Source: Saccharibacillus sacchari DSM 19268 (GTDB lineage Bacteria; Bacillota; Bacilli; Paenibacillales; Paenibacillaceae). From it: DNA of 24,000 nucleotides. The stretch covers positions 1,058,407 to 1,082,406 of the forward strand of contig NZ_KK073875.1 in NCBI RefSeq assembly GCF_000585395.1, read 5' to 3'. A program made the translations under genes and the position numbers. Each line of letters opens with the position of its first letter. Within the stretch, counting starts at the first letter, position 1. The notes beneath the pieces were generated by a model, which made no database searches, had not been told where the DNA came from, and worked only from the letters and a program-made list of their open reading frames with translations. Shown piece after piece: positions 8,124 to 18,585 of this stretch.

Positions 8124-9143
8124 ATGGACTTTGTGGCAATCGACTTCGAAACGGCCAACTCCAAACGGGCAAGCGTCTGTGCGGTAGGCCTGGTCGAGGT
8201 GCGCGGCGGACGCATCGTCGACGAATATTACACGCTCGTCAATCCGCACGATGATTTTGATTATTTTTGTATTGCGGTGCATGGCATTACGCCCGATCAG
8301 GTCGAGGATGCGCCTTCATTTGCTGAGATTTGGCCTGAAATGCGAAGCCGGATCGAAGGCCGCGTGCTGGTCGCGCACAACGCTTCGTTCGATATGAGCG
8401 TATTGCGCCGCAGCGCCGAAGAATACGGTCTGGAACTGCCTCATATCCAATACATGTGCTCCTTCCTGATGGCGCGCAAGATCTGGCCGACGATGCCGAA
8501 TCATAAATTGAATACCGTAGCGAGCCAACTGGGTCTCAGCGCATTCAAGCATCACGACGCGATCGAGGATGCGCGAACGTCGGCCAAGATCATGCTGCGT
8601 TGTTCAACGGAAGGCGAAGCTTCGGATTGCGATGCCCTCGCGGCGCGTTACGGCTATCGCATTGGACAGATTACGCAAAATGGCGAGCATGTGACGTTCT
8701 CGGCTTCGGCTCCGAAAAGCAATCGGGGACGCGCCGGACAAGGCAGCTCTGCTGCTGCGAACGGTTCCTCAACGTCCAAAAAAAAGCCGCTTCCCGCATC
8801 CAATCGCGATGCTGACCCAACCAACCCGCTCTATGGAAAACGGATCGTATTCAGCGGCCGGATGAGCAGCATCAAGCGCGAAGAAGCGCTGCGACGTACC
8901 GCCAATCTGGGCGCATTCTGCACGGATTCGGTCGAATGGAAAACGGATTACCTGGTCGTGGGGCGCAACGATTATACAAAATACAGAGCGGGCAGCTACT
9001 CCAGCAGCAAGACGCAGTCGGCCGAAAAGCTGGCAGCCGGCGGCAGCACCATTCAAATCCTGTGCGAAGACGACTTCACGCCTCTGCTCGAAGAATTGGA
9101 ATTCGACGCCATACGGGTTGCGAAGGAGCGCCGCGATGGATAA
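8124..9143 (+). CDS. DEDDh (DnaQ-like) 3'-5' exonuclease fused to a C-terminal BRCT domain
   Basis: Exo I FVAIDFETAN, Exo II LVAHNASFDMSVL, Exo III HHDAIEDARTSAKI. A low-complexity linker precedes a BRCT-like GKRIVFSGRMSSIKREEALRRTANLGAFCTDSVEWKTDYLVVG. RBS GGGGAGGA lies 9 nt upstream. Confidence 0.8.
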   Translation: MDFVAIDFETANSKRASVCAVGLVEVRGGRIVDEYYTLVNPHDDFDYFCIAVHGITPDQVEDAPSFAEIWPEMRSRIEGRVLVAHNASFDMSVLRRSAEEYGLELPHIQYMCSFLMARKIWPTMPNHKLNTVASQLGLSAFKHHDAIEDARTSAKIMLRCSTEGEASDCDALAARYGYRIGQITQNGEHVTFSASAPKSNRGRAGQGSSAAANGSSTSKKKPLPASNRDADPTNPLYGKRIVFSGRMSSIKREEALRRTANLGAFCTDSVEWKTDYLVVGRNDYTKYRAGSYSSSKTQSAEKLAAGGSTIQILCEDDFTPLLEELEFDAIRVAKERRDG

Positions 9144-9609: not shown

Positions 9610-10242
9610 TCAGGCTTCGCCGATCGATACCGGAACGCCGTCTTCCGTCGCATCCGGATCGCCGTAGATGAAGTGTTCGACGCTAATAATGTTCTCTTCG
9701 AGCGTCCCTTGCGAATTGTCGAAGTACAGAACCGAACGGCCCGGTAGCTCCCATTGGACTTCGGTGCGCTGCATGCGCTGCACGAATTCGTCCCAGTTCG
9801 CCAGTTTCCATTCGTCGGCTTTATGTCCGCGGTCTTCAATGCGTTTTTTGTACTGAGCCATGTCTTCCAGATAGACGTAAACGACTTTGACTTCAACGTC
9901 GTTCACGGTCGCGCCGATCTTGGCCAGTTCTTCATGAATCCAGTTCGGGTTGCGAATCTCGCTGGTGAACGGGCCGACCGCGAATACGTCGGAACCCAGT
10001 TCCAGGTTCTCCAAAGCCGAGTCCATCGTCAGACGATAACCCAAATCGCGGCACAGCAGCTTGTATGCGGCCGAATCTCGGTCATGCGGATCATGTCCCA
10101 TCAGCTCCATGATCTTCTCGCTCGCCGGACGGGAAGCGGTGTCCATGTCCAGAAAGACCGGATGTTCCTTGATCGTAATGCCTTTGGCGATCGTCGTTTT
10201 GCCGCTTCCGGCTCCCCCTACGAAAAATACCAGTTTGCGCAT
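9610..10242 (-). CDS. P-loop NTPase / putative kinase (AAA_33-like guess)
   Basis: Walker A FFVGGAGSGKTT sits immediately after the start, followed by FLDMDT, a candidate catalytic Asp strand. The start is ambiguous: GTG 10263, ATG 10254 or ATG 10242. AAGGGGA precedes the last one by 11 nt. Confidence 0.65.
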   Translation of the reverse strand: MRKLVFFVGGAGSGKTTIAKGITIKEHPVFLDMDTASRPASEKIMELMGHDPHDRDSAAYKLLCRDLGYRLTMDSALENLELGSDVFAVGPFTSEIRNPNWIHEELAKIGATVNDVEVKVVYVYLEDMAQYKKRIEDRGHKADEWKLANWDEFVQRMQRTEVQWELPGRSVLYFDNSQGTLEENIISVEHFIYGDPDATEDGVPVSIGEA

Positions 10243-10300
10243 AGCGTCTTTCATCCCCTTCACTTGCCTGCTTCACGGCTGATTTTTGTCATAAAGAAGC

Positions 10301-10462: not shown

Positions 10463-11260
10463 TTAAAGTTTGAAAAAAGCTTTCGCCGTCTCTGTCGTCT
10501 GTTCCATGACTAATTCTGCGCTTCTGCCCGTGCATTCCGCGACAGCACGCGCAATATGCGGCAGATAAATGGGCTCGTTCCGTCCGTCTTTCGGCTTTGG
10601 CACCAGATCGCGAGGCGTCAAAAACGGCGCGTCCGTCTCGATCATGAGCCGATCCGGCGGGATCAGGCGCACCAGCTCGCGCAGATGTTTGCCGCGGCGT
10701 TCGTCGCAGATCCAGCCCGTGATCCCGATATGCAGACCCATATCCAGATAAGCGCGCAGTTCCGCTTCCGTGCCGGTAAAACAATGCACCACGGCCGGAA
10801 GTTCGGCAGGCTTCATCCGGCGGATGATCCGCGCGAAGTCCTCGTGGGCGTCCCGTTCATGCAGGAACAGCGGCATCTCCAGCTCCTCTGCCAACTCGAC
10901 CTGCTTCGCGAACCATTCCAGCTGCGTGTCTCGCGGCGAGAAGTCGCGATTGTAATCCAGTCCGCATTCGCCGATCGCCACCACTTCATCTCCTGCTGCC
11001 AGGTCGCGGAGACTTTGCAGCGTGCGTTCGCCGCAGCTTTTCGCGTCATGCGGATGCACGCCTGCGGTTGCATAAAGCTGACCGGGATAACGTCGGGCAT
11101 AATCGGCGGCCGCTTCGCTGCTCCGCACGCTCGTCCCGGTGATAATCATGGGAGATACCCCCGCTTCAATCGCGGCTTGCACCACTTGCTCGCGGTCGTA
11201 ACCGAACGAGCGGTGCATCAGATTGATGCCGATATCGATTGTCTGTCGCAAAGATGACAT
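10463..11260 (-). CDS. tatD: TatD-family metal-dependent nuclease
   Basis: Collinear with my memory of E. coli TatD: IDIGINLMH, AGVHPHD, IGECGLDYNRDF, LFLHERDAHEDF, VVHCFTGT, IGITGWICDERRG, IETDAPFLTPRD, RNEP..LPHI. ATG 11260 has AAAGGAG 8 nt upstream; the ORF-track GTG at 11269 overlaps the RBS. Confidence 0.9.
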   Translation of the reverse strand: MSSLRQTIDIGINLMHRSFGYDREQVVQAAIEAGVSPMIITGTSVRSSEAAADYARRYPGQLYATAGVHPHDAKSCGERTLQSLRDLAAGDEVVAIGECGLDYNRDFSPRDTQLEWFAKQVELAEELEMPLFLHERDAHEDFARIIRRMKPAELPAVVHCFTGTEAELRAYLDMGLHIGITGWICDERRGKHLRELVRLIPPDRLMIETDAPFLTPRDLVPKPKDGRNEPIYLPHIARAVAECTGRSAELVMEQTTETAKAFFKL

Positions 11261-11319
11261 ATCCAACACTCCTTTTGCTGTTCATTGATCTGTACCTGAA
11301 TACGTCCAGCCTTATTCGT

Positions 11320-12021
11320 TTAACGCTTCGAGCGCGGCTCCGGCTTGTCTTCATAGGTCTCGTCCAGTTGGATCAGGTTGGGAGGAATACATTCAGCCAA
11401 CCAAACTTCGCTGCCCGCATCGTAAAAAATAATGCCTTCGTTCATTGCCGACGCGGAATCGATACGCAGCATGATGAGCTTACCCTTACGCCGTCCTGCC
11501 AATGCGGCAAAAGACGTTTCCGCCGACAGATGTACGTATTCCCGGCCCATGGGCAGCAGCCCGTGTTCTTCGATAGAAGGCAGCGCCTGTCGTCCCGTGC
11601 CGTGATACAGGACGGTCGGCGGCGTGCCTTGCGGATAAGTCACGCGTCCGAAACTATGACCGTAACGGGCGCGTATACGCGGCTCGGGCGCTTTTTCGGC
11701 CGATGCTCCCTTTTCCGCTTCGTCCACAGGCTCCAGGATTTCGAAACGCTGCTTGTCCGAACGACGCACCACGCCGCGAATGTCCTCTTCGGTCGTATCC
11801 GCGTAGCCGGTCCGGTTGCGGACGGCCGCCAATAGCTCGTCGAGTCCGCAAGATCCGTCTTCCGGATCAAGCGTCAGTCCGAAATCTTCCGGCGAATGCC
11901 GCAGCATCATGGACATCAGCTTGCTGATTTTTTTGTCCTGCTCGGCGGTCGACAACTTCGGTTCCCGGCTTTGTCCCCGGTAAGGATTGCCTCCGCCTTT
12001 GTTTTTATTGTTTTTGCTCAT
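11320..12021 (-). CDS. kptA: RNA 2'-phosphotransferase (Tpt1/KptA family)
   Basis: KISKLMSMMLRHSPEDFGLTLDPEDGSCGLDELL, then RFEI, RARYGHS, VLYHGT and VHLS motifs typical of Tpt1/KptA. RBS GAGGAGAA lies 8 nt upstream. Confidence 0.85.
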   Translation of the reverse strand: MSKNNKNKGGGNPYRGQSREPKLSTAEQDKKISKLMSMMLRHSPEDFGLTLDPEDGSCGLDELLAAVRNRTGYADTTEEDIRGVVRRSDKQRFEILEPVDEAEKGASAEKAPEPRIRARYGHSFGRVTYPQGTPPTVLYHGTGRQALPSIEEHGLLPMGREYVHLSAETSFAALAGRRKGKLIMLRIDSASAMNEGIIFYDAGSEVWLAECIPPNLIQLDETYEDKPEPRSKR

Positions 12022-12316
12022 TGGTCATTCTCCTCGTTTCTTCTTGCCTTACGCCGGGCATACGCAGCCAACTGGCATACTCATTGCGGAGCCACGGGTC
12101 GCTTGCGGTAGCGATCTTCCGATGCAGCTCTTCGATCAAGTTCGAAGACGCGTTTTCATTAATCGCCATAGGGATGAAATCCGTAAGATCGTGCGCACCT
12201 GCACACGCCGAAGCCTTCGCATACAAATCAATCAACGCGAGTACGGCCCATTCTTCGTCCAAATGTTCGGTCAGCCGATCCAGACATTTGTACAGCTCGT
12301 GAATGTCCGATTCCAT
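12005..12316 (-). CDS. Hypothetical 103-aa protein embedded in the RNA-repair operon
   Basis: ORF between rtcB and kptA whose 3' end overlaps the kptA start by 17 nt. ATG 12316 has GGGAGG 11 nt upstream; the longer ATG at 12385 has no RBS. Predicted helical and acidic, with no motif I recognise. Confidence 0.55.
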   Translation of the reverse strand: MESDIHELYKCLDRLTEHLDEEWAVLALIDLYAKASACAGAHDLTDFIPMAINENASSNLIEELHRKIATASDPWLRNEYASWLRMPGVRQEETRRMTNEQKQ

Positions 12317-12424
12317 GAACCCGAACGCCTCCCTGCTATCTATATCAACGCAAATACAACCCCGTTTGTTTCCCCGGAGCTGCATTTTTGCTTTTTTCGT
12401 ATCGCTGCGTTCGTCCGCTTCCGT

Positions 12425-13651
12425 TTAATCTTTATACGGATCAAACTCGTTCGCCCCTGCCATCGCGACGCCGATCGGCTTCAAGGTATGCAGCACGTCG
12501 ATCGTTTCCGAATGCGCGTCCAGCACCTCTTGAAGCTTCCGATATACAAAAGGACTCTCGTCCGTGCCCGCGCCTCTCAGCTCGACATCGAACTGCTTGA
12601 CCGCTTTCATCATGCGCTCTTCGGTAATCTCGCCGCCGATTCGCACACGCGTTTTCCAATTCATTTTCCCTGCGGCCTGCGTTCGGCTCATAATGCGACC
12701 TGCTCCATGCACCGTGCTGTAAAAGGACTCGCCGTTCTCCGCCGTGTTTTTCCCGCGCACGATCACCGAAATATCCGCCATGCTGCCTCCGATAAAACCG
12801 AGCTGACCCGGAGCCGAAGGCGTCGCTCCTTTGCGCACGACAATGCAGTCTTTGCCTTCGTGCTTTTCTTTCCAGGCGAAGTTGTGATGGTTGTGCACCT
12901 CGAAATCGCTTGTCGCGCCCAAAATACCCAACACCTGCTCGATGACGTAATCCCGCCCCGCATACGCGTAACGTCCGGCCAGCTTCATCGCGCGGTAGTA
13001 CATGTCGCCCGTCTCGCTATCGAGATCGAATAGTACAGGGGGCTGATCCATGCTTTCGCCCGGCGCTTTGCCCAAGAAATCGCGGCCCGCCGCCACGTTC
13101 AGGAACCCGCTCGCCGTTTTATGACCGAAGCCCCGGCTGCCGAAATGGTTTCCGATCCAGATCCGCCCCGTCGACGGCTCTTCGAAAATATCGACGTAAT
13201 GGTTGCCGCTGCCGACTGTGCCGAGTTGATCGCGCGCCAGCTTTTTCAGCTTGTCGTGCACATTGCCGCCGATCTGCCGATACACCGACCAGTCGGGATC
13301 GTCGAACAGCTCGTGATCCACCTTTTTCTGATTGACGCGGCCCACACCGAACTCCACGCTACGGGCGATCTGATCCATGACGGACTTGATGCGCGGTTTG
13401 ACGTCTTCGGCCATCAGGTTCGTGCGCACCGCTTTGTTGCCGCAGCCGATATCATAACCGACGCCGCTCGGGGAAATTTGCCCTTCGTACGCGAGGACGC
13501 CGCCGATCGGCTGGCTGTACCCTTTATGATGATCGGCCATCAGCAGCGCTTGCACCACGTTCCCATGGTATGCGCAGGTTTGAGCCTGCTTCAGCGCGCT
13601 TTCGTCCACTTTTCCCCATACCCTTACCTTATCTATCGTTTCGTAACTCAT
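12425..13651 (-). CDS. rtcB: RNA 3'-phosphate/5'-OH ligase RtcB
   Basis: 408 aa with MADHHKGYSQPIGGV, VGYDIGCGN, GSGNHYVDIF, GNHFGSRGFGH, HNHHNF and STVHGAGR (guanylyl-His region). The ATG overlaps the rsr stop (ATGA). Confidence 0.93.
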   Translation of the reverse strand: MSYETIDKVRVWGKVDESALKQAQTCAYHGNVVQALLMADHHKGYSQPIGGVLAYEGQISPSGVGYDIGCGNKAVRTNLMAEDVKPRIKSVMDQIARSVEFGVGRVNQKKVDHELFDDPDWSVYRQIGGNVHDKLKKLARDQLGTVGSGNHYVDIFEEPSTGRIWIGNHFGSRGFGHKTASGFLNVAAGRDFLGKAPGESMDQPPVLFDLDSETGDMYYRAMKLAGRYAYAGRDYVIEQVLGILGATSDFEVHNHHNFAWKEKHEGKDCIVVRKGATPSAPGQLGFIGGSMADISVIVRGKNTAENGESFYSTVHGAGRIMSRTQAAGKMNWKTRVRIGGEITEERMMKAVKQFDVELRGAGTDESPFVYRKLQEVLDAHSETIDVLHTLKPIGVAMAGANEFDPYKD

Positions 13652-15171
13652 GATGTTTCATTCCCTTCTTTTTCGTCCGCTAACCGATCCAAATCCATTC
13701 TCGCGACATGCGCACTCATGGAATCGAACCCGCGCGCCGCCGCCGAGATATAAGGCAGCACCTGATCGCTCCAGCCGTAGACGTAATGCGTGTTCAGGTC
13801 TTCCTTGGGCACCATCGCTCCGCGATACGGCGACAAATCGACGATGAACGCTTTGGCGTCGCGGTTGATTTTGGAACGATAACGCTGAAGTTCGGTATAA
13901 AAAGGACTGCCTTCGTTCTGCTGCTCGTCCGTCACGATAATGATCTGGTCGACGTTTTCCCGCAGCTCGTTCAGACGCCGCACCGGCAGGCCCGTATCCG
14001 TTCCGCCTCTGGCTTTGATCCGCGATGCTTGTCCCATGATGCTCGCGTTTCGCGAAGGCTGCGGGTCGTGCACTTCATGGTCAAAAGTGAGAAAAATCGA
14101 GCGTCCGCCCGTCTTTTTATACAGAGCCAAAGCGAAAACGGAACCCGTCCGCAAATAATCGCCTTCCATCGAACCCGAAATATCGAGCAGAATCGCGGTA
14201 CGGCCCGGCAGATCCGGCAGGCTGGCGAAGGTCAGATCGACGGCTTCGGCCAATGCTTCCTTGATGACCGGATGTTTCACCTGACCGTAAGCCGTGGCGA
14301 ACCGCAGCGGCAAAATCTTCGATTTGCGCAGCGCCGCCGCATCGTTCAGACGCTCGACCGCGTAGCGCAGATGCTGCGGATGCTCGAACAATCCTTCGCG
14401 CTCGAACGTGTTTAGATGGCGCAGCAGCGCGAAGATCGGCATCTGGTACAGCAGCGCTTCCCAGATTTTTTTGTTCGCCGTTACCGCTCCGGTCACCGTC
14501 TCGTACGGCAGCTTGCCTTCGCGGATCAGGCGGATGCGCGTTTTGTCTTTGCTCGCCTTTTTCAACTGTTCGACGGCTTGGATCTGCGGCAACCCTTCGA
14601 GCGTCGTCTCATGGCCGCGCAGATAACGGAACAGCGCCTGCTGGCGTTCGTCGGTTGGAATCGGATGCGCGGTCGCGATCGCGTCTCCCAAATTATACCC
14701 CCGACCGTGGCCGCCGTATTTGATCGCCCAATATTCCGACGTTTTTTGCAGGAAAGCCGCGATTTGCCGCTTAACCGCACGGCCTCCCTGACCCCGTCCC
14801 ATGCCGCGCAGAATCGTCAGGAAGTCGGACAGGTCGGGCGGAATCAGAACTAAGTGCAGGAATACTTTGCGGAATAGGTCAGGGCGCGCTTTGGACAGTA
14901 CCGCCAACCCGTAAATCGGCTGCAAACGCATAAAGCCTTTTGTTCTCGCGAACACCAGTGCCTTGGCCATGAATTCCGGGTTCAGCTCGACCATCGCTTC
15001 GTGCGTATCGGCAGCTTGAGCCAGCAGATCGTGAGCGTCCGCATAAAAGGTATTGCCGAGCGTGTTCGTCAGCAGCATCTGCACGTATTCTTCTTCGAAG
15101 CTGCGATTATGGGCACGGTACCCTTCGGCGTTGAACAGGGATTCGGTAAAACGTTGCACGGCACGACTCAT
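13648..15171 (-). CDS. rsr: Ro60-related protein Rsr (TROVE domain + vWA/MIDAS domain)
   Basis: TROVE-like LGNTFYAD, RTKGFMRLQPIYGLAVL, LRGMGRGQGGRAVKRQIA, WAIKYGGHGRGYNLGDAIATAHPIP. C-terminal vWA with the MIDAS motif LLDISGSM and RGGTDTG. RBS GAAGGAGG lies 8 nt upstream. Confidence 0.9.
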   Translation of the reverse strand: MSRAVQRFTESLFNAEGYRAHNRSFEEEYVQMLLTNTLGNTFYADAHDLLAQAADTHEAMVELNPEFMAKALVFARTKGFMRLQPIYGLAVLSKARPDLFRKVFLHLVLIPPDLSDFLTILRGMGRGQGGRAVKRQIAAFLQKTSEYWAIKYGGHGRGYNLGDAIATAHPIPTDERQQALFRYLRGHETTLEGLPQIQAVEQLKKASKDKTRIRLIREGKLPYETVTGAVTANKKIWEALLYQMPIFALLRHLNTFEREGLFEHPQHLRYAVERLNDAAALRKSKILPLRFATAYGQVKHPVIKEALAEAVDLTFASLPDLPGRTAILLDISGSMEGDYLRTGSVFALALYKKTGGRSIFLTFDHEVHDPQPSRNASIMGQASRIKARGGTDTGLPVRRLNELRENVDQIIIVTDEQQNEGSPFYTELQRYRSKINRDAKAFIVDLSPYRGAMVPKEDLNTHYVYGWSDQVLPYISAAARGFDSMSAHVARMDLDRLADEKEGNETS

Positions 15172-15251
15172 GTCGATGGCCTCCTTCGGATGTTGGACTG
15201 CTTATATTGGATTGTTGGTAAGGGAAACGGATCGTTGTGCTGCTCACACGT

Positions 15252-15292
15252 GAGACGTTCATGTTTTTGCGCGACGACATGGATGAACGTCT
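15252..15292 (-). promoter_or_regulatory. 10-bp-stem hairpin in the rsr 5' leader, adjacent to CTCAC-N2-GTGAG
   Basis: AGACGTTCAT(15252-15261) and ATGAACGTCT(15283-15292) are perfect inverted repeats with a 21-nt loop. The inverted repeat CTCACacGTGAG at 15243-15254 abuts it. It lies 80-120 nt upstream of the rsr ATG. Confidence 0.4.
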
Positions 15293-15436
15293 TGCGTTTA
15301 AACAGCAGAGAATAGATGAACACGAATCGCCGGCGAAGAAAAACGGAGAAGGTCACGCGGGGCTCGAAACCCTTTACTGCCGTTTTGGTTCTCTTTTATG
15401 GTCGAAGGAACCCTCTCCCGCGCCTCGTCGGCGTTA

Positions 15437-15604
15437 CGTGTTCGGTTAGTACTAGGGCATGTCCGAAGAAAAAGGTGGAAAGGAACAAGCTGCTCTACCG
15501 CTGAGCTATTCCGCCGCGCATGGCGGAAACCGGATTCGAACCGGCGACCTGCCGATTAAAAGTCGAAGTAACCCTTCCTGGCGCCTCGGACAATTCCGAT
15601 CACG
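15437..15604 (-). ncRNA. yrlA: Bacterial Y RNA (YrlA-like) with permuted tRNA-like module
   Basis: Reading the minus strand:
- Basal stems: CGUGAUCGG(15604-15596) pairs with CCGAACACG(15445-15437); UGUCCGAGG(15592-15584) pairs with CUUCGGACA(15468-15460).
- Variable loop: AGGUC.
- T-arm: GCCGG-UUCGAAU-CCGGU(15545-15529).
- Acceptor-like stem: 7 bp, UUCCGCC/GGCGGAA, closed by loop AUGCGC(15528-15509).
- D-arm: UA, then GCUC-AGCGGUA-GAGC(15506-15492).
- Position: 265 nt upstream of rsr on the same strand.
- Ends are approximate. Confidence 0.75.
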
Positions 15605-15815
15605 TTCAAAGCCGTTTGGCCTCGCCGCTCTCGTTTGCCTGGGTTCATCTTCGCATGGCCGGAGGGACTTCAACAGGGCGAAAGTATGGCAAACGGCAAA
15701 AATGCAGGGAAGATCCATTATTTTTGGACAGCGGTAACTTAACTCGATCGGATTGCGTTCAAGAAATAATCATTCGAATTTTGACCTTGATCTTCAATAA
15801 AGGGATGTGTATACC

Positions 15816-16196
15816 ATGTTCAAAAAGAAACGTCTCGCCTGGACAACCGCCATTCTTCTCGCCGTGATCCTGAGCGGCATTTTGGTTTTTCGTTCGGTGC
15901 TGGACATGAACGAATCCGAACTGTCGACAGCCGAAATCGCGTTCAATCAGGTGGAATTGACGCCTAATGCTCTGAGAATCAGCGGAACGCTGGTGGCCAG
16001 CGCATTGAGCTATCGGGATTGCGAATACGAACAGGACGGCAGCAATCTGTACATCACGCTGCAAGGCGGATTGGTCACGAAAAAACATCCCGACGGCGAT
16101 TTCGACATTTCGATCCGAAACGACGATTTCTCGAAGGTCGACCGTGTCTATCTCAAGCACGGGGAAGATCATGTTCTGATTTACCCGCAGCGCTGA
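15816..16196 (+). CDS. Small membrane-anchored/secreted hypothetical protein
   Basis: MFKKKRLAWTTAILLAVILSGILVF is an N-terminal TM/signal anchor, followed by a beta-rich region of about 100 aa. AAGGGA lies 10 nt before ATG 15816; the ORF-track GTG at 15807 abuts the RBS. Confidence 0.6.
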   Translation: MFKKKRLAWTTAILLAVILSGILVFRSVLDMNESELSTAEIAFNQVELTPNALRISGTLVASALSYRDCEYEQDGSNLYITLQGGLVTKKHPDGDFDISIRNDDFSKVDRVYLKHGEDHVLIYPQR

Positions 16197-16308
16197 AAAG
16201 ATCATGCACGAAGCCGATCAAGCCATACGTCTTCCGTTCGCCATACTTGCGCCCTTTCCCCCACCCTCCCTTTCCGTTTAAAATATCCGTACCTGCAACA
16301 CCCGGATT

Positions 16309-16337
16309 TTTACAAACCCGCTCCCTCTGTCTACAAT
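16309..16337 (+). promoter_or_regulatory. SigA-type promoter of the WYL gene pair
   Basis: TTTACA(16309-16314), an exact 17-nt spacer, then TACAAT(16332-16337). It sits 30 nt before the GGAGGA RBS and ATG at 16368. Confidence 0.6.
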
Positions 16338-16367: not shown

Positions 16368-17654
16368 ATGGCCAAAGAAAGTTTCGACAAAGAGATCCAG
16401 TTCCTGCGCCTGCTTGCCCTGACCGGAGGCGGTTATGATCGGCAGCAGTTCGCGGGACGCCTCGGCATCTCGGTACATACCTTCGACAAAACGGTCCGCA
16501 AACTGCGCGAGATCAGCGGAGACGCGGATTTTGCCGACCTGTTCCGCTACGGATATGCCGATTCGGCCGAGCCGGTGCTGCTGTTCTTGTACCGCGCCAA
16601 GTCGATGAAGGAATCGGAAAGCCGCCGCCTGCCGCTCATCCTGACCGCGCTCAAAGGCACGCCGCAGACCGCCGCCGAGCTGCTCGACGCCTGCTGCGAG
16701 CGCCTGCCCCTGGATGCCGCCATGCCGGACGAGAAAACGATCCGTTCCGACCTGCGTTATCTGGAAGAGATCGGCGTCGTGCGGCGCGAACCAGGCGGTC
16801 GTCCATACCGATATGTGTTGAACAACGACCTGACCGACTGCCTGTCCCAAAAAGAACTGATCGATCTCTACGAGTTCGTCGATATCATGGCTAACACGCA
16901 GATTCCTTCCGTTCAAGGATACCTACTGCGCGACAATCTCAAAAAAGCGCTCAAATCCGCCGTACCCGAAGAAGAGTGGGACGACGGTCTACTGGAGCCT
17001 TTTTCCTATAAATATCATTACGACGCGCGCATTCTGGACGAAGCCCATCTGTACACGCTGCTTCGAACCATCCATCTGCGCAAACGCATCTCGTTCCAAT
17101 ACTTTTCGCCGAAAAATCGCAAAAGCTACTCGGCCAAAGAAACCAATCCCCTGTTCGGCCGCGAAACGGAGGTTCGACGCGAAAGTACGCTGCCGCTTAA
17201 GGTCGTGTACGATCATCAATACGGCAGATGGTATCTGATCGGTGCCGCCGCCAAAGGTCGTTTCGTCAAGTTCCGCATGGAGGGCATGATCGATATTGCG
17301 GAAGAGCAGGAAGCGCCGGACGAATATTTCGCGCTCAAAAAGCAGCAGCTCGACGAACAAATGCGCCACAGTTGGCTGATCGATACCGGCGAGACCGTCA
17401 CGGTACGCGCCAAGTTCTACCGTCCTCGCGGACAAGCCGACTTCATCGCGGAACGCGTGCGGCTGCAGGGCCAATGGGGGCAGATCGTGGAGGAGAACGA
17501 AGACTTCTTCATCTATGAGATTCAAGTCAACGGCGTAACGGAAATCCGGCCGTGGCTGCGGGGGTTCGGGTCGAGCTGCGAAGTGCTGGCACCCGCGGAT
17601 TTGAGACAGTCGTTCATCGACGAATGGAAGGAGATCGGAGACTATTATGAATAA
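16368..17654 (+). CDS. HTH + WYL + WCX domain transcriptional regulator (PafB/PafC-like architecture)
   Basis: N-terminal HTH-like segment (LGISVHTFDKTVRKLREI) and a winged-helix-like segment (TAAELLDAC...IRSDLRYLEEIGVVRREPGGRPYRYVL). WYL core ISFQYFS...LKVVYDHQYGRWYLIGAAAKGRFVKFRMEGMIDI. C-terminal WCX-like IRPWLRGFGSSCEVLAPADLRQSF. Confidence 0.75.
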   Translation: MAKESFDKEIQFLRLLALTGGGYDRQQFAGRLGISVHTFDKTVRKLREISGDADFADLFRYGYADSAEPVLLFLYRAKSMKESESRRLPLILTALKGTPQTAAELLDACCERLPLDAAMPDEKTIRSDLRYLEEIGVVRREPGGRPYRYVLNNDLTDCLSQKELIDLYEFVDIMANTQIPSVQGYLLRDNLKKALKSAVPEEEWDDGLLEPFSYKYHYDARILDEAHLYTLLRTIHLRKRISFQYFSPKNRKSYSAKETNPLFGRETEVRRESTLPLKVVYDHQYGRWYLIGAAAKGRFVKFRMEGMIDIAEEQEAPDEYFALKKQQLDEQMRHSWLIDTGETVTVRAKFYRPRGQADFIAERVRLQGQWGQIVEENEDFFIYEIQVNGVTEIRPWLRGFGSSCEVLAPADLRQSFIDEWKEIGDYYE

Positions 17655-18585
17655 TCCTTTCGAAAAAATATTCAACTACCAGCTCTCCTCGCGGCTTGAA
17701 GAAACGGGCGTCTACACGCTCACGTCGCAAGAACGCTCCTGGCTGAAGTCGATGCTGGAGCATCCGGCGGCGCACGAAGCTCTGGAGCCGCGCACGATCG
17801 CCAAACTGCAAGAGTGCGTGCTGGACGACGAAATCTCGAATCTGCTGGACGGACTGGAGCAAAAAGCGGGCAGCCTTGAAACCCAAATCGTCCATCCGCT
17901 GCTGTCTCCGATCCGCCGCATCCTGCGCAACCGTCAAGGAATGACCATCCAATGCCGCACCAAGAAAGGAAAGCTCAACGAGCCTCAGCCGGGCATTCCG
18001 TACAAGCTGGAGTATTCGATGGTCAAACGCGAATGGTATCTGCACTGGTACAATTCGTCGACGCGCTCGATCCTGCATACGCGGCTGTGCCATATCGTGT
18101 CGGTGGAGCAGTCGCGCGTATCCCGTACCTCTTACGAAGAACAAACGGTTCGCGCGCAGAAGCTGTTCGAAGCGCCGCGGCACGAAGCCGTCGTCGAGGT
18201 GATCCGCACGTTTAACGCCGAACTGACGCGGATTCTGCATGCTTTTTCCTGCTTCGATAAAAAGGTCGAGTTCGACGAGGAAGAACGGACCTACCGGATT
18301 CACCTGACGTTTACCGATAGCGAAGGCCAATTCGTGCTGACCAAGCTGCGTTTTCTGGGCAAGCGGGTCCGCGTCGTGGAGGGAAATTACCTGAAATACC
18401 GGATGCGGGAAACGGCGAGGAAGGCGTTGGCGCTGTATGGAGTGGAAGGAGCGAACGCGGTCGAAACTTCGGACAGCGATCAAAGCAAAGCAGCCGAAGG
18501 CTCGGCGGATGCGCAAAAGGCGGAGCAATCTTCGAACTCGAAAAACGCTGCCGATATCATCGCTCGAACGAAAATTCCGGGCTGA
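17647..18585 (+). CDS. WYL + WCX domain protein without an obvious HTH (partner of the upstream regulator)
   Basis: The ATG overlaps the upstream stop by 8 nt (ATGAATAA), with GGAG 6 nt upstream. WYL-like PYKLEYSMVKREWYLHWYNSSTRSILHTRLCHIVSVE and WCX-like KLRFLGKRVRVVEGNYLKYRM. Ends in a low-complexity Ser/Ala/Glu tail. Confidence 0.65.
   Translation: MNNPFEKIFNYQLSSRLEETGVYTLTSQERSWLKSMLEHPAAHEALEPRTIAKLQECVLDDEISNLLDGLEQKAGSLETQIVHPLLSPIRRILRNRQGMTIQCRTKKGKLNEPQPGIPYKLEYSMVKREWYLHWYNSSTRSILHTRLCHIVSVEQSRVSRTSYEEQTVRAQKLFEAPRHEAVVEVIRTFNAELTRILHAFSCFDKKVEFDEEERTYRIHLTFTDSEGQFVLTKLRFLGKRVRVVEGNYLKYRMRETARKALALYGVEGANAVETSDSDQSKAAEGSADAQKAEQSSNSKNAADIIARTKIPG

Follow-up and report, generated by a model that had tools for sequence, protein, structure and literature searches.

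WylAB and an associated 23-bp box: a two-gene WYL regulator as the putative switch of RNA-repair operons in Paenibacillaceae

To our knowledge, bacterial RNA repair has a single characterised regulator, RtcR, whose signal took years to identify. RtcR combines a CARF sensor with a sigma54 AAA+ domain and a helix-turn-helix (HTH), serves a sigma54-type promoter, and is dedicated to the Rsr/Y RNA/RtcB repair operon beside which it is encoded; its sensor-domain class is predicted to bind nucleic-acid fragments (PMC7790460, PMC4012209). In Saccharibacillus sacchari DSM 19268, a stretch of 24,000 nucleotides (contig NZ_KK073875.1, positions 1,058,407 to 1,082,406; hereafter the window, numbered from its first letter) contains an operon of this kind and, beside it on the opposite strand, two overlapping genes, here called wylA and wylB, for a long and a short protein with WYL and WCX domains. 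Sequence comparison of this locus with its relatives makes it likely that the two proteins (WylAB), together with an oriented 23-bp box, form a switch for RNA-repair operons in Paenibacillaceae, with the pair acting as a heteromeric, ligand-dependent activator. If true, a large group of soil Firmicutes would have a second switch for such operons, unrelated to RtcR. WYL regulators, so far tied to DNA damage and phage defence, would then also serve in RNA damage, and they would include a two-subunit architecture with DNA binding confined to one subunit.

Among the described WYL regulators, DriD and PafBC are nearest in fold to both proteins; next come CapW, again for both, and BrxR for WylB. Mycobacterial and actinobacterial PafBC consists of PafB and PafC, two different WYL-WCX proteins from neighbouring genes, both with an HTH, which form one asymmetric unit; PafBC has a single-stranded DNA (ssDNA) ligand and a DNA-damage regulon, and acts at promoters without a -35 element, one ligand strand spanning both WYL domains (PMC11804915). 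DriD from Caulobacter, with the domain order winged HTH, three-helix bundle, WYL and WCX, also senses ssDNA and controls DNA-damage genes, binding as a homodimer to the pseudo-palindrome ATACGAC-N7-GTCGTAT; at its promoters, the activator box takes the place of the -35 element, of which none is recognisable (PMC13004042). Another WYL activator, SiwR, binds close upstream of the -10 element, at the -26 region (PMC10693628). CapW and BrxR share the HTH-WYL-WCX fold and are encoded beside the conflict-related operons that they regulate, as homodimeric repressors of phage-defence systems (CBASS, BREX). The Aravind laboratory has put forward broadly that cyclic-phosphate RNA may be sensed by WYL and CARF transcription factors, with some of these factors regulating RNA repair (PMC9503650). 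The literature yielded no experiments on a WYL regulator of RNA repair, nor any account of the long/short gene pair, its box, the geometry of the promoters or the regulon described below, the 2016 source on such systems being covered through the papers that cite it. As far as found, then, the partner without an HTH is new, as are the box and the regulon, while WYL regulation of RNA repair had already been predicted generally.

The wylA gene (16368-17654, + strand) encodes a regulator of 428 residues and wylB (17647-18585, +) a partner of 312 residues; the stop of the first overlaps the start of the second by 8 nt (17647-17654, +; ATGAATAA), exactly as in the preliminary description of this DNA, and both peptide strings quoted there are present in the translations. 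WylA is 100% identical to a protein of S. sacchari, a species within the Paenibacillaceae. According to an AlphaFold2 (AF2) model and profile matches, it consists of an N-terminal helical HTH-like module, a winged helix (residues 82-151), a helical linker, a WYL domain (239-315) and a WCX domain (343-427). Pfam recognises the WCX domain clearly (1.7e-11, 44.7 bits with a cut-off of 23.9) and the WYL domain narrowly (22.6 bits, cut-off 21.8), in addition to a weak HTH_23 match at residues 10-53; HTH_11 is annotated (precomputed) in many WylA homologues, and the PADLOC WYL-WCX profile is matched at 6e-27. The winged helix is confident in the AF2 model, whose mean pLDDT is 67.5 and whose best Foldseek match is DriD (8.5e-13 over ~370 columns), with PafB at 7e-12.

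WylB begins with a near-invariant short peptide, MNxFEKIFNYQ, and continues with a helical bundle, a WYL domain (98-156), a WCX domain (179-263) and a disordered low-complexity tail (266-312). It has no Pfam match; its residues 76-261 match the PADLOC WYL-WCX profile (5.8e-13), and its AF2 model, with a core pLDDT >90, contains the WYL beta-barrel and the WCX domain and no HTH. Its best Foldseek matches are PafBC (PafC/PafB), DriD, BrxR and CapW. The earlier assignment of WYL/WCX-like regions to both proteins thus stands by Pfam for WylA and, for WylB, at the profile and fold level only, and the restriction of recognisable DNA-binding segments to WylA (the winged helix and the weak HTH_23 match) agrees with the models. 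Among 1.84 billion representative proteins searched by profile, canonical HTH-WYL-WCX proteins of 320-340 residues align with WylB only from their own residue ~80-100 onward, and for this reason WylB is, as judged from the alignments, a YafY-type protein that appears to have lost its DNA-binding domain and to carry the short N-terminal peptide in its place. Of the elements that characterise the YafY-type WYL class, the HTH is found in WylA only, and the WYL and WCX domains are found in both proteins (in WylB, the WCX domain by model and fold match); WylAB belongs to this broad YafY/WYL regulator class. The two proteins share no significant similarity in BLASTP and are therefore not products of a recent duplication, and profile searches of either against all PDB sequences returned nothing at E <= 0.01.

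WylAB resembles PafBC in comprising two adjacent genes for two different WYL-WCX proteins that presumably form one asymmetric unit, and PafBC is among the best fold matches of both WylA and WylB. The two systems differ in that WylB has no HTH, in the ~100 extra N-terminal residues of WylA, in their DNA boxes and in their hosts (Bacillota vs Actinobacteria), and the likeness is confined to the fold, sequence-profile similarity being undetected. With one subunit devoid of an HTH and no homology at the sequence level, WylAB is therefore not a member of the PafBC family. DriD provides the best fold match and the domain order of WylA; however, its operator is a pseudo-palindrome, whereas the WylAB box is asymmetric and oriented. 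RtcR is comparable in role, but CARF and AAA+ domains are absent from WylA and WylB (Pfam, NCBIfam), as is the GAFTGA motif, and the WylAB promoters are sigma-A-like; since no domain is shared, WylAB is an analogue and not a homologue of RtcR, which is how the preliminary description had cast it. By analogy, WylAB probably works like RtcR in role and like DriD or PafBC in mechanism.

The distribution of the pair was surveyed with a WylB alignment against one genome per species (GTDB), in which 388 matched stretches encode a WylB relative. Locus counts rest on the best 80 of these 388 relatives, one locus per record, with 79 complete loci (single loci are cited by number, e.g., L004); neighbouring genes were located by tblastn with the window proteins and Brevibacillus RlaP, Hen1 and Pnkp. 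All of the best 80 loci belong to Saccharibacillus, Paenibacillus, Cohnella, Brevibacillus or unnamed Bacillota metagenome-assembled genomes. The wylA gene lies directly upstream of wylB in 79/79 loci, and in all of them the genes overlap by 8 to about 29 nt, with GGAG, the ribosome-binding site of wylB, inside wylA; the stop/start overlap suggests translational coupling. Given this strict coupling of the genes, the strong conservation of both WYL cores and the precedent of a ligand shared by two WYL domains in PafBC, WylA and WylB would most likely act as one complex. The same observations bear on a different role for WylB, that of a negative modulator: an HTH-less decoy might form DNA-binding-deficient complexes with WylA and damp the response, as the lack of any HTH in WylB and the occurrence of HTH-less WYL proteins alone beside CRISPR loci could suggest. 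However, strict 1:1 coupling with overlapping genes throughout the loci suggests an obligate partner, both the WYL core and the N-terminal peptide of WylB are strongly conserved, and the single ssDNA strand spanning both WYL domains of PafBC (PMC11804915) offers a precedent for a sensor made of two WYL domains; a decoy is improbable.

Of the 79 loci, 71 carry a core RNA-repair gene within 10 kb upstream of the pair and divergent from it, and in 51 it lies within 1 kb. This is the reverse of what the preliminary description had named as speaking against its proposal, namely a pair found mostly apart from rsr or rtcB. The nearest repair gene encodes Rsr in 36 loci, RlaP in 30, RtcB in four and Hen1 in one, and the neighbouring operons display 18 distinct orders of the genes for Rsr, RlaP, RtcB, Hen1-Pnkp, KptA and TatD (e.g., RlaP-RtcB, Rsr-RlaP-RtcB, Rsr-RlaP-Hen1-Pnkp-RtcB, Hen1-Pnkp-RtcB, and the Rsr-RtcB-KptA-TatD type of Saccharibacillus). 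Since a constant pair adjoins highly variable sets of repair genes, mere inherited synteny is unlikely and a functional link is favoured. Neither a GAFTGA motif nor an RtcR-type sigma54 activator was found in the operon neighbourhoods of 81 loci, and no defence genes were found beside the pair in the Paenibacillaceae loci.

Alignment of the regions upstream of wylA revealed the 23-bp oriented box TCGyMATACTTyCGCCmTGTTCg upstream of repair operons, with ATACTT.CGCC as its most conserved bases. In the direction of the repair operon, the full unit reads gTCGyMATACTTyCGCCmTGTTCg, 9-10 variable bases, and aaaTnaGc-GAwGAT; GTCGTAAT at the 5' edge of the box resembles the DriD half-site GTCGTAT, a likeness that is a lead only. 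The box occurs in three settings: in the intergenic region between the pair and the divergent operon; in constant orientation before second repair operons at the same loci that are not linked to the pair, for Hen1-Pnkp (L057, L058, L062, L081) or Rsr (L031, L064, L067); and, at some loci, before a conserved noncoding stretch of ~480 nt that is followed by genes for a Band-7/SPFH protein, RlaP and RtcB. Among the genome loci, 71 of 85 box copies have Rsr, RlaP, Hen1, RtcB or wylA within 1.5 kb downstream, and some of the remaining 14 precede Band-7 with the tRNA-like stretch. The window itself contains the 14-nt box core exactly twice, vs 0.02 copies expected by chance.

The ~480-nt stretch (L060 8123-8600, - strand; also L045, L069 and L075) carries a perfect T-arm-like element, GGGGTTCGATTCCCC. 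Rfam and ARAGORN returned nothing for the stretch in L060, which is probably a tRNA-like RNA accompanying SPFH-type repair systems. The repair modules found here agree with a 2016 catalogue by Burroughs and Aravind, which is said to include Rsr/Y RNA, Band-7 with tRNA-like RNA, RlaP, RtcB and Pnkp-Hen1 systems, and the arrangement of box, noncoding stretch, Band-7/SPFH, RlaP and RtcB corresponds to a repair module of an SPFH protein and a tRNA-like RNA that these authors reportedly describe.

As an independent test, the box alone was scanned against 241 million metagenome records, which yielded 66 copies on 64 contigs. At least 1 kb of sequence follows 53 of the copies, and 42 of these 53 have a repair-system gene downstream (Rsr 17, Band-7 14, RlaP 6, RtcB 3, Hen1 1, Pnkp 1); among the other 11, seven precede one shared unknown protein of 695 residues and four nothing recognisable. 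Where enough upstream sequence was present (46 copies), wylA is divergently adjacent to 20 copies and 26 stand alone, and no other gene family recurs upstream of the stand-alone boxes. From the genome and metagenome contexts together, the box therefore marks an RNA-repair regulon of several operons, with wylAB as the sole recurring regulator genes beside it. The tie between the pair and the neighbouring operon, as first proposed from the window, is thereby supported by variable operons, a shared box and the lack of another recurring regulator.

The box could in principle belong to some other factor, with the WYL pair a mere syntenic neighbour. Promoters of extracytoplasmic function (ECF) sigma factors follow the consensus AAC-N16-CGT, and the box as read on the wylA strand, CGAACATGGCGAAAGTATTACGAC, is superficially similar and could be taken for an ECF-type promoter, GAAC-N15-CGA, facing the opposite way. 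In such a promoter the best-conserved bases, ATACTT.CGCC, would be spacer; every copy would face away from the repair operons; and the second copy in the window would fire antisense into a small gene. With the ECF reading rejected for its conserved spacer and wrong direction, no other regulator gene recurring near the box, and wylA adjacent in 20 of the 46 metagenome copies, ownership by another factor is very unlikely. Two further readings of the unit were discarded. As an RNA leader or riboswitch, it gave no consensus structure with RNAalifold on 57 diverse copies, and single sequences fold no better than shuffles (mean z-score -0.03). Compared with the sigma54 promoter consensus, TGGC-N-TTAC on the wylA strand has a variable -12 G and runs away from the operons.

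The composition of the regulon also bears on the nature of the signal. WylAB could be a sensor of ssDNA, i.e., of DNA damage, as PafBC, DriD and SiwR are, with RNA-repair genes as part of a DNA-damage regulon: all three bind ssDNA, PafBC ignored single-stranded RNA (ssRNA), and expression of the enterobacterial RNA-repair operon is reported to be linked with the SOS response and prophage genes (PMC9879122). However, all recognised gene classes behind the box act on RNA or scaffold RNA repair (Rsr/Y RNA, Band-7, RlaP, RtcB, Hen1, Pnkp), and genes for DNA repair, such as recA or uvr, were not found behind any box. The ligand specificity need not match that of PafBC or DriD either, as the sequence profiles of WylA and WylB reach no solved structure. 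An ssDNA sensor is thus rather doubtful. The question of broken RNA vs ssDNA is directly testable in vitro with the box, the predicted geometry and the regulon list in hand.

The arrangement of the box relative to the promoter is the most regular feature of the unit. In 142 of 146 distinct copies, the hexamer exactly 17 nt past the terminal TGTTCG has A as its second and T as its sixth base, vs 6.4% in the background; typical forms are GAAGAT, GATGAT and GAAAAT (GAnnAT). If this hexamer is the -10 element, the box spans about -53 to -31 and the -35 hexamer is its own TGTTCG, which matches TTGACA at 2/6 positions, with the GAnnAT -10 element also weak (3-4/6 matches to the consensus). With the predicted transcription start and the candidate WylAB site, this succession of box end, 17 nt and -10-like hexamer would fit the DriD-like class, in which the activator box takes the -35 position at a fixed distance from the -10 element. 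PafBC-dependent promoters are similar in layout. An arrangement with ATACT inside the box as the -10 element and the rest as a downstream operator was set aside: an upstream -35 element is not conserved (mean 3.1/6 vs 2.4 in the background), and the GAnnAT hexamer is at a fixed distance of 17 nt in 142/146 copies.

In the window, the copy facing the Y RNA-rsr operon (box 1, 15670-15692, - strand, TTGCCATACTTTCGCCCTGTTGA) is a candidate WylAB site over the -35 position; GAAGAT (15647-15652, -) follows exactly 17 nt past it, and the operon is predicted to start near 15640 (-).

A site over the -35 position is also what a repressor would occupy. WylAB might sit on the box like CapW or BrxR, blocking polymerase at -35 until a ligand releases it, and this is a serious alternative: CapW and BrxR are among the fold matches, WYL regulators of conflict systems often repress (PMC9503650, PMC11888443), and operator-like palindromic copies of the core, ATACTTCCGCC-AA-GGCGCGAAGTAT, occur in Saccharibacillus. 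Nevertheless, the core promoter is weak, and both of its poor hexamers (TGTTCG and GAnnAT) are fixed in the conserved unit, whereas promoters under repression tend to be strong; DriD and PafBC, which head the fold matches, are activators. Repression is thus unlikely, and activation is favoured on the grounds of the DriD-like position of the box, the weak core promoter and the fold ranking.

In the activator that we favour, WylA and WylB would be co-produced from their overlapping genes, WylA bringing the DNA-binding domains and WylB a second WYL-WCX sensor module. The complex would recognise the 23-bp box at promoters without a usable -35 element; on binding of a single-stranded nucleic-acid damage signal by the WYL domains, it would help sigma-A polymerase to initiate, in the manner of DriD and PafBC. 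Broken RNA or RNA ends would be the likeliest signal, with ssDNA also possible; RNA fragments are a guess from the fact that the regulon genes act on RNA. The regulon would consist of the Paenibacillaceae operons for Y RNA-Rsr, Band-7 with tRNA-like RNA, RlaP, RtcB and Hen1-Pnkp. In the window, box 1 would drive Y RNA-rsr-rtcB-p126-kptA-tatD, perhaps with the AAA_33 gene, and a second box would add positive feedback on wylAB atop a constitutive promoter, P1. A more specific version is put forward tentatively, as possible rather than probable: WylAB may be an RNA-damage sensor of one DNA-binding and one HTH-less subunit, with a two-WYL channel for broken RNA (2',3'-cyclic phosphate/5'-OH ends of tRNA or rRNA fragments), that recruits sigma-A polymerase to -35-less promoters and whose regulon includes a ~520-residue protein, the 695-residue protein, which is RING-like, and the ~480-nt tRNA-like RNA.

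Several points weigh against an activator of RNA repair. The case is wholly computational, and a box over the -35 position would also fit a repressor. In the literature covered, all WYL transcription factors whose nucleic-acid ligand is defined (PafBC, DriD, SiwR) bind ssDNA, and PafBC is not activated by ssRNA (PMC11804915). Confidence in the WylA model is only moderate (pLDDT 67.5), and the helical first 80 residues are poorly modelled. All genome loci come from one family, where shared ancestry inflates the counts and the events are not independent; the argument is carried by the variety of operon orders and by the stand-alone boxes and not by raw locus counts. Eight of the 79 loci have no repair gene within 10 kb; in one of them, L053, a fragment of RtcB comes right after the box, and others have boxes before unknown genes. 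Remoter long/short WYL pairs (L085, L086) lie in unrelated, partly defence-like contexts, and a lone HTH-less relative (L088 10001-10816) adjoins a type III CRISPR-Cas locus. These remote pairs and relatives indicate that the architecture of a WYL pair is not specific to RNA repair and predates its use there. The remote pairs (L085 8544-10686, L086 8662-10807) combine a long protein of 431-450 residues and a short one of 268-284 residues beside unknown or NERD-domain genes; neither repair genes nor a similar box were found at the two loci.

From its sequence elements, wylAB itself is predicted to have more than one promoter in the window. A near-consensus sigma-A promoter, P1 (TTTACA-17-TACAAT, 16309-16337, +), already noted in the preliminary description, matches at 10/12 positions, but such a match is by itself not significant (two sites of P1 grade in the scanned region vs 1.6 expected); most homologous loci do keep a TACAAT -10 element, mostly as TGyTACAAT, upstream of wylA. 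The second box of the window (box 2, 16238-16260, +, TCGCCATACTTGCGCCCTTTCCC) faces wylAB with an exact core match, lies 48 nt upstream of P1 and is a candidate autoregulatory site. The -10-like hexamer TAAAAT (16279-16284, +) lies 18 nt past it and might be part of a box-dependent promoter, P2, an autoregulated second promoter of wylAB with a predicted start near 16291. In the Saccharibacillus loci L004-L012, the inverted arrangement of box 2 upstream of wylA is conserved, and TAAAAT or TAAGAT occurs at a similar distance past the box. The palindromic core copies in this genus, ATACTTCCGCC-AA-GGCGCGAAGTAT, are additional to these boxes, form a near-perfect palindrome and lie just upstream of the wylA-facing box in L006 (about 8480-8600), L007, L008, L011 and L012.

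The two boxes of the window are separated by a small gene of 129 codons (15807-16196, +), which has no family match, is present only in the closest relative (L004), and encodes an N-terminus that by eye resembles a membrane helix or signal peptide. The gene was apparently inserted into an ancestral divergent promoter region and so divided it; in Saccharibacillus, insertions have moved pair and operon apart, with one copy of the box kept on either side. From the ATG of wylA, the distance is 778 nt to the 5' end of a YrlA-like RNA and 1197 nt to the ATG of rsr, in keeping with the roughly 760 nt, the opposite strand and the single intervening gene first noted for this locus.

This RNA (15459-15590, -) is a probable Y RNA of the YrlA-like type with a tRNA-like module (Rfam RF02553): the match scores 42.5 bits (E 9e-8), below the Rfam gathering score of 69, and the tRNA model reaches 24.9 bits on the same stretch; nothing in the window was found by Rfam at the gathering threshold or by ARAGORN. 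Next follows rsr (13648-15171, -), for a divergent Ro60 orthologue (Pfam TROVE 3.8e-10 and vWA_Ro60 4.1e-7; NCBIfam Rsr 2e-23, below the cut-off), then rtcB for the RNA ligase (12425-13651, -; Pfam RtcB 4.8e-71) and a gene in the operon for a protein of 126 residues (12005-12385, -), without a significant family match and present in L004 and L006. This 126-codon gene, between rtcB and kptA, overlaps the start of kptA/tpt1 (11320-12021, -), which encodes an RNA 2'-phosphotransferase (Pfam PTS_2-RNA 3.9e-37; NCBIfam 1.3e-46, below the cut-off). A 3'-5' nuclease gene of the tatD family (10463-11269, -; Pfam TatD_DNase 1.9e-73; NCBIfam TatD 1.1e-93, below the cut-off) comes next, and the last gene of the operon is possibly that of an AAA_33 P-loop kinase-like protein (9610-10263, -; Pfam AAA_33 1.1e-7; syntenic in L004 and L012). 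A Ro60 orthologue, a Y RNA (with its score below gathering) and RtcB are thus encoded together, as in bacterial Rsr/Y RNA/RtcB operons. The comparison with rsr-rtcBA drawn in the preliminary description is accordingly apt for rsr and rtcB and fails for rtcA: the six operon genes gave no RtcA family match in Pfam or NCBIfam, and KptA, TatD and the AAA_33 protein follow RtcB instead. With the order rsr-rtcB-kptA-tatD and no rtcA, the operon is not strictly of the enterobacterial rsr-rtcBA type.

The box could serve as a handle for new RNA-repair components among the uncharacterised genes downstream of it. The protein of 695 residues lies directly behind a stand-alone box in L065 (11704-13791, -) and on metagenome contigs L094, L098, L124, L131, L132, L133 and L144; it matches the NCBIfam MXAN_6230/SCO0854 RING-domain family at 6.5e-147 (491 bits, below the cut-off of 600) and is an unexpected member of the putative regulon. 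The ~520-residue protein is encoded at 15 loci (L079 6919-8493, -; L015-L021, L047, L072, etc.), in most of them between RlaP and RtcB; it has no Pfam or NCBIfam match, and its position suggests an uncharacterised component of RNA-repair operons.

Some minor features of the window may be added. Between the YrlA-like match and the ATG of rsr (15172-15458, -) lie a second T-arm-like element, GGGUUUCGAGCCCC, and long helices; Rfam found nothing in this interval, which may encode a second Y-RNA-like RNA. A copy of the box core with one mismatch, CCATGCTTTCGCCC, lies antisense inside rtcB (13048-13061, +) and is probably a chance match. Just past the end of the repair operon, on the opposite strand and without a box, a gene (8124-9143, +) encodes an RNase_T-family exonuclease fused to a BRCT domain, and the rest of the window consists of ordinary chromosomal genes.

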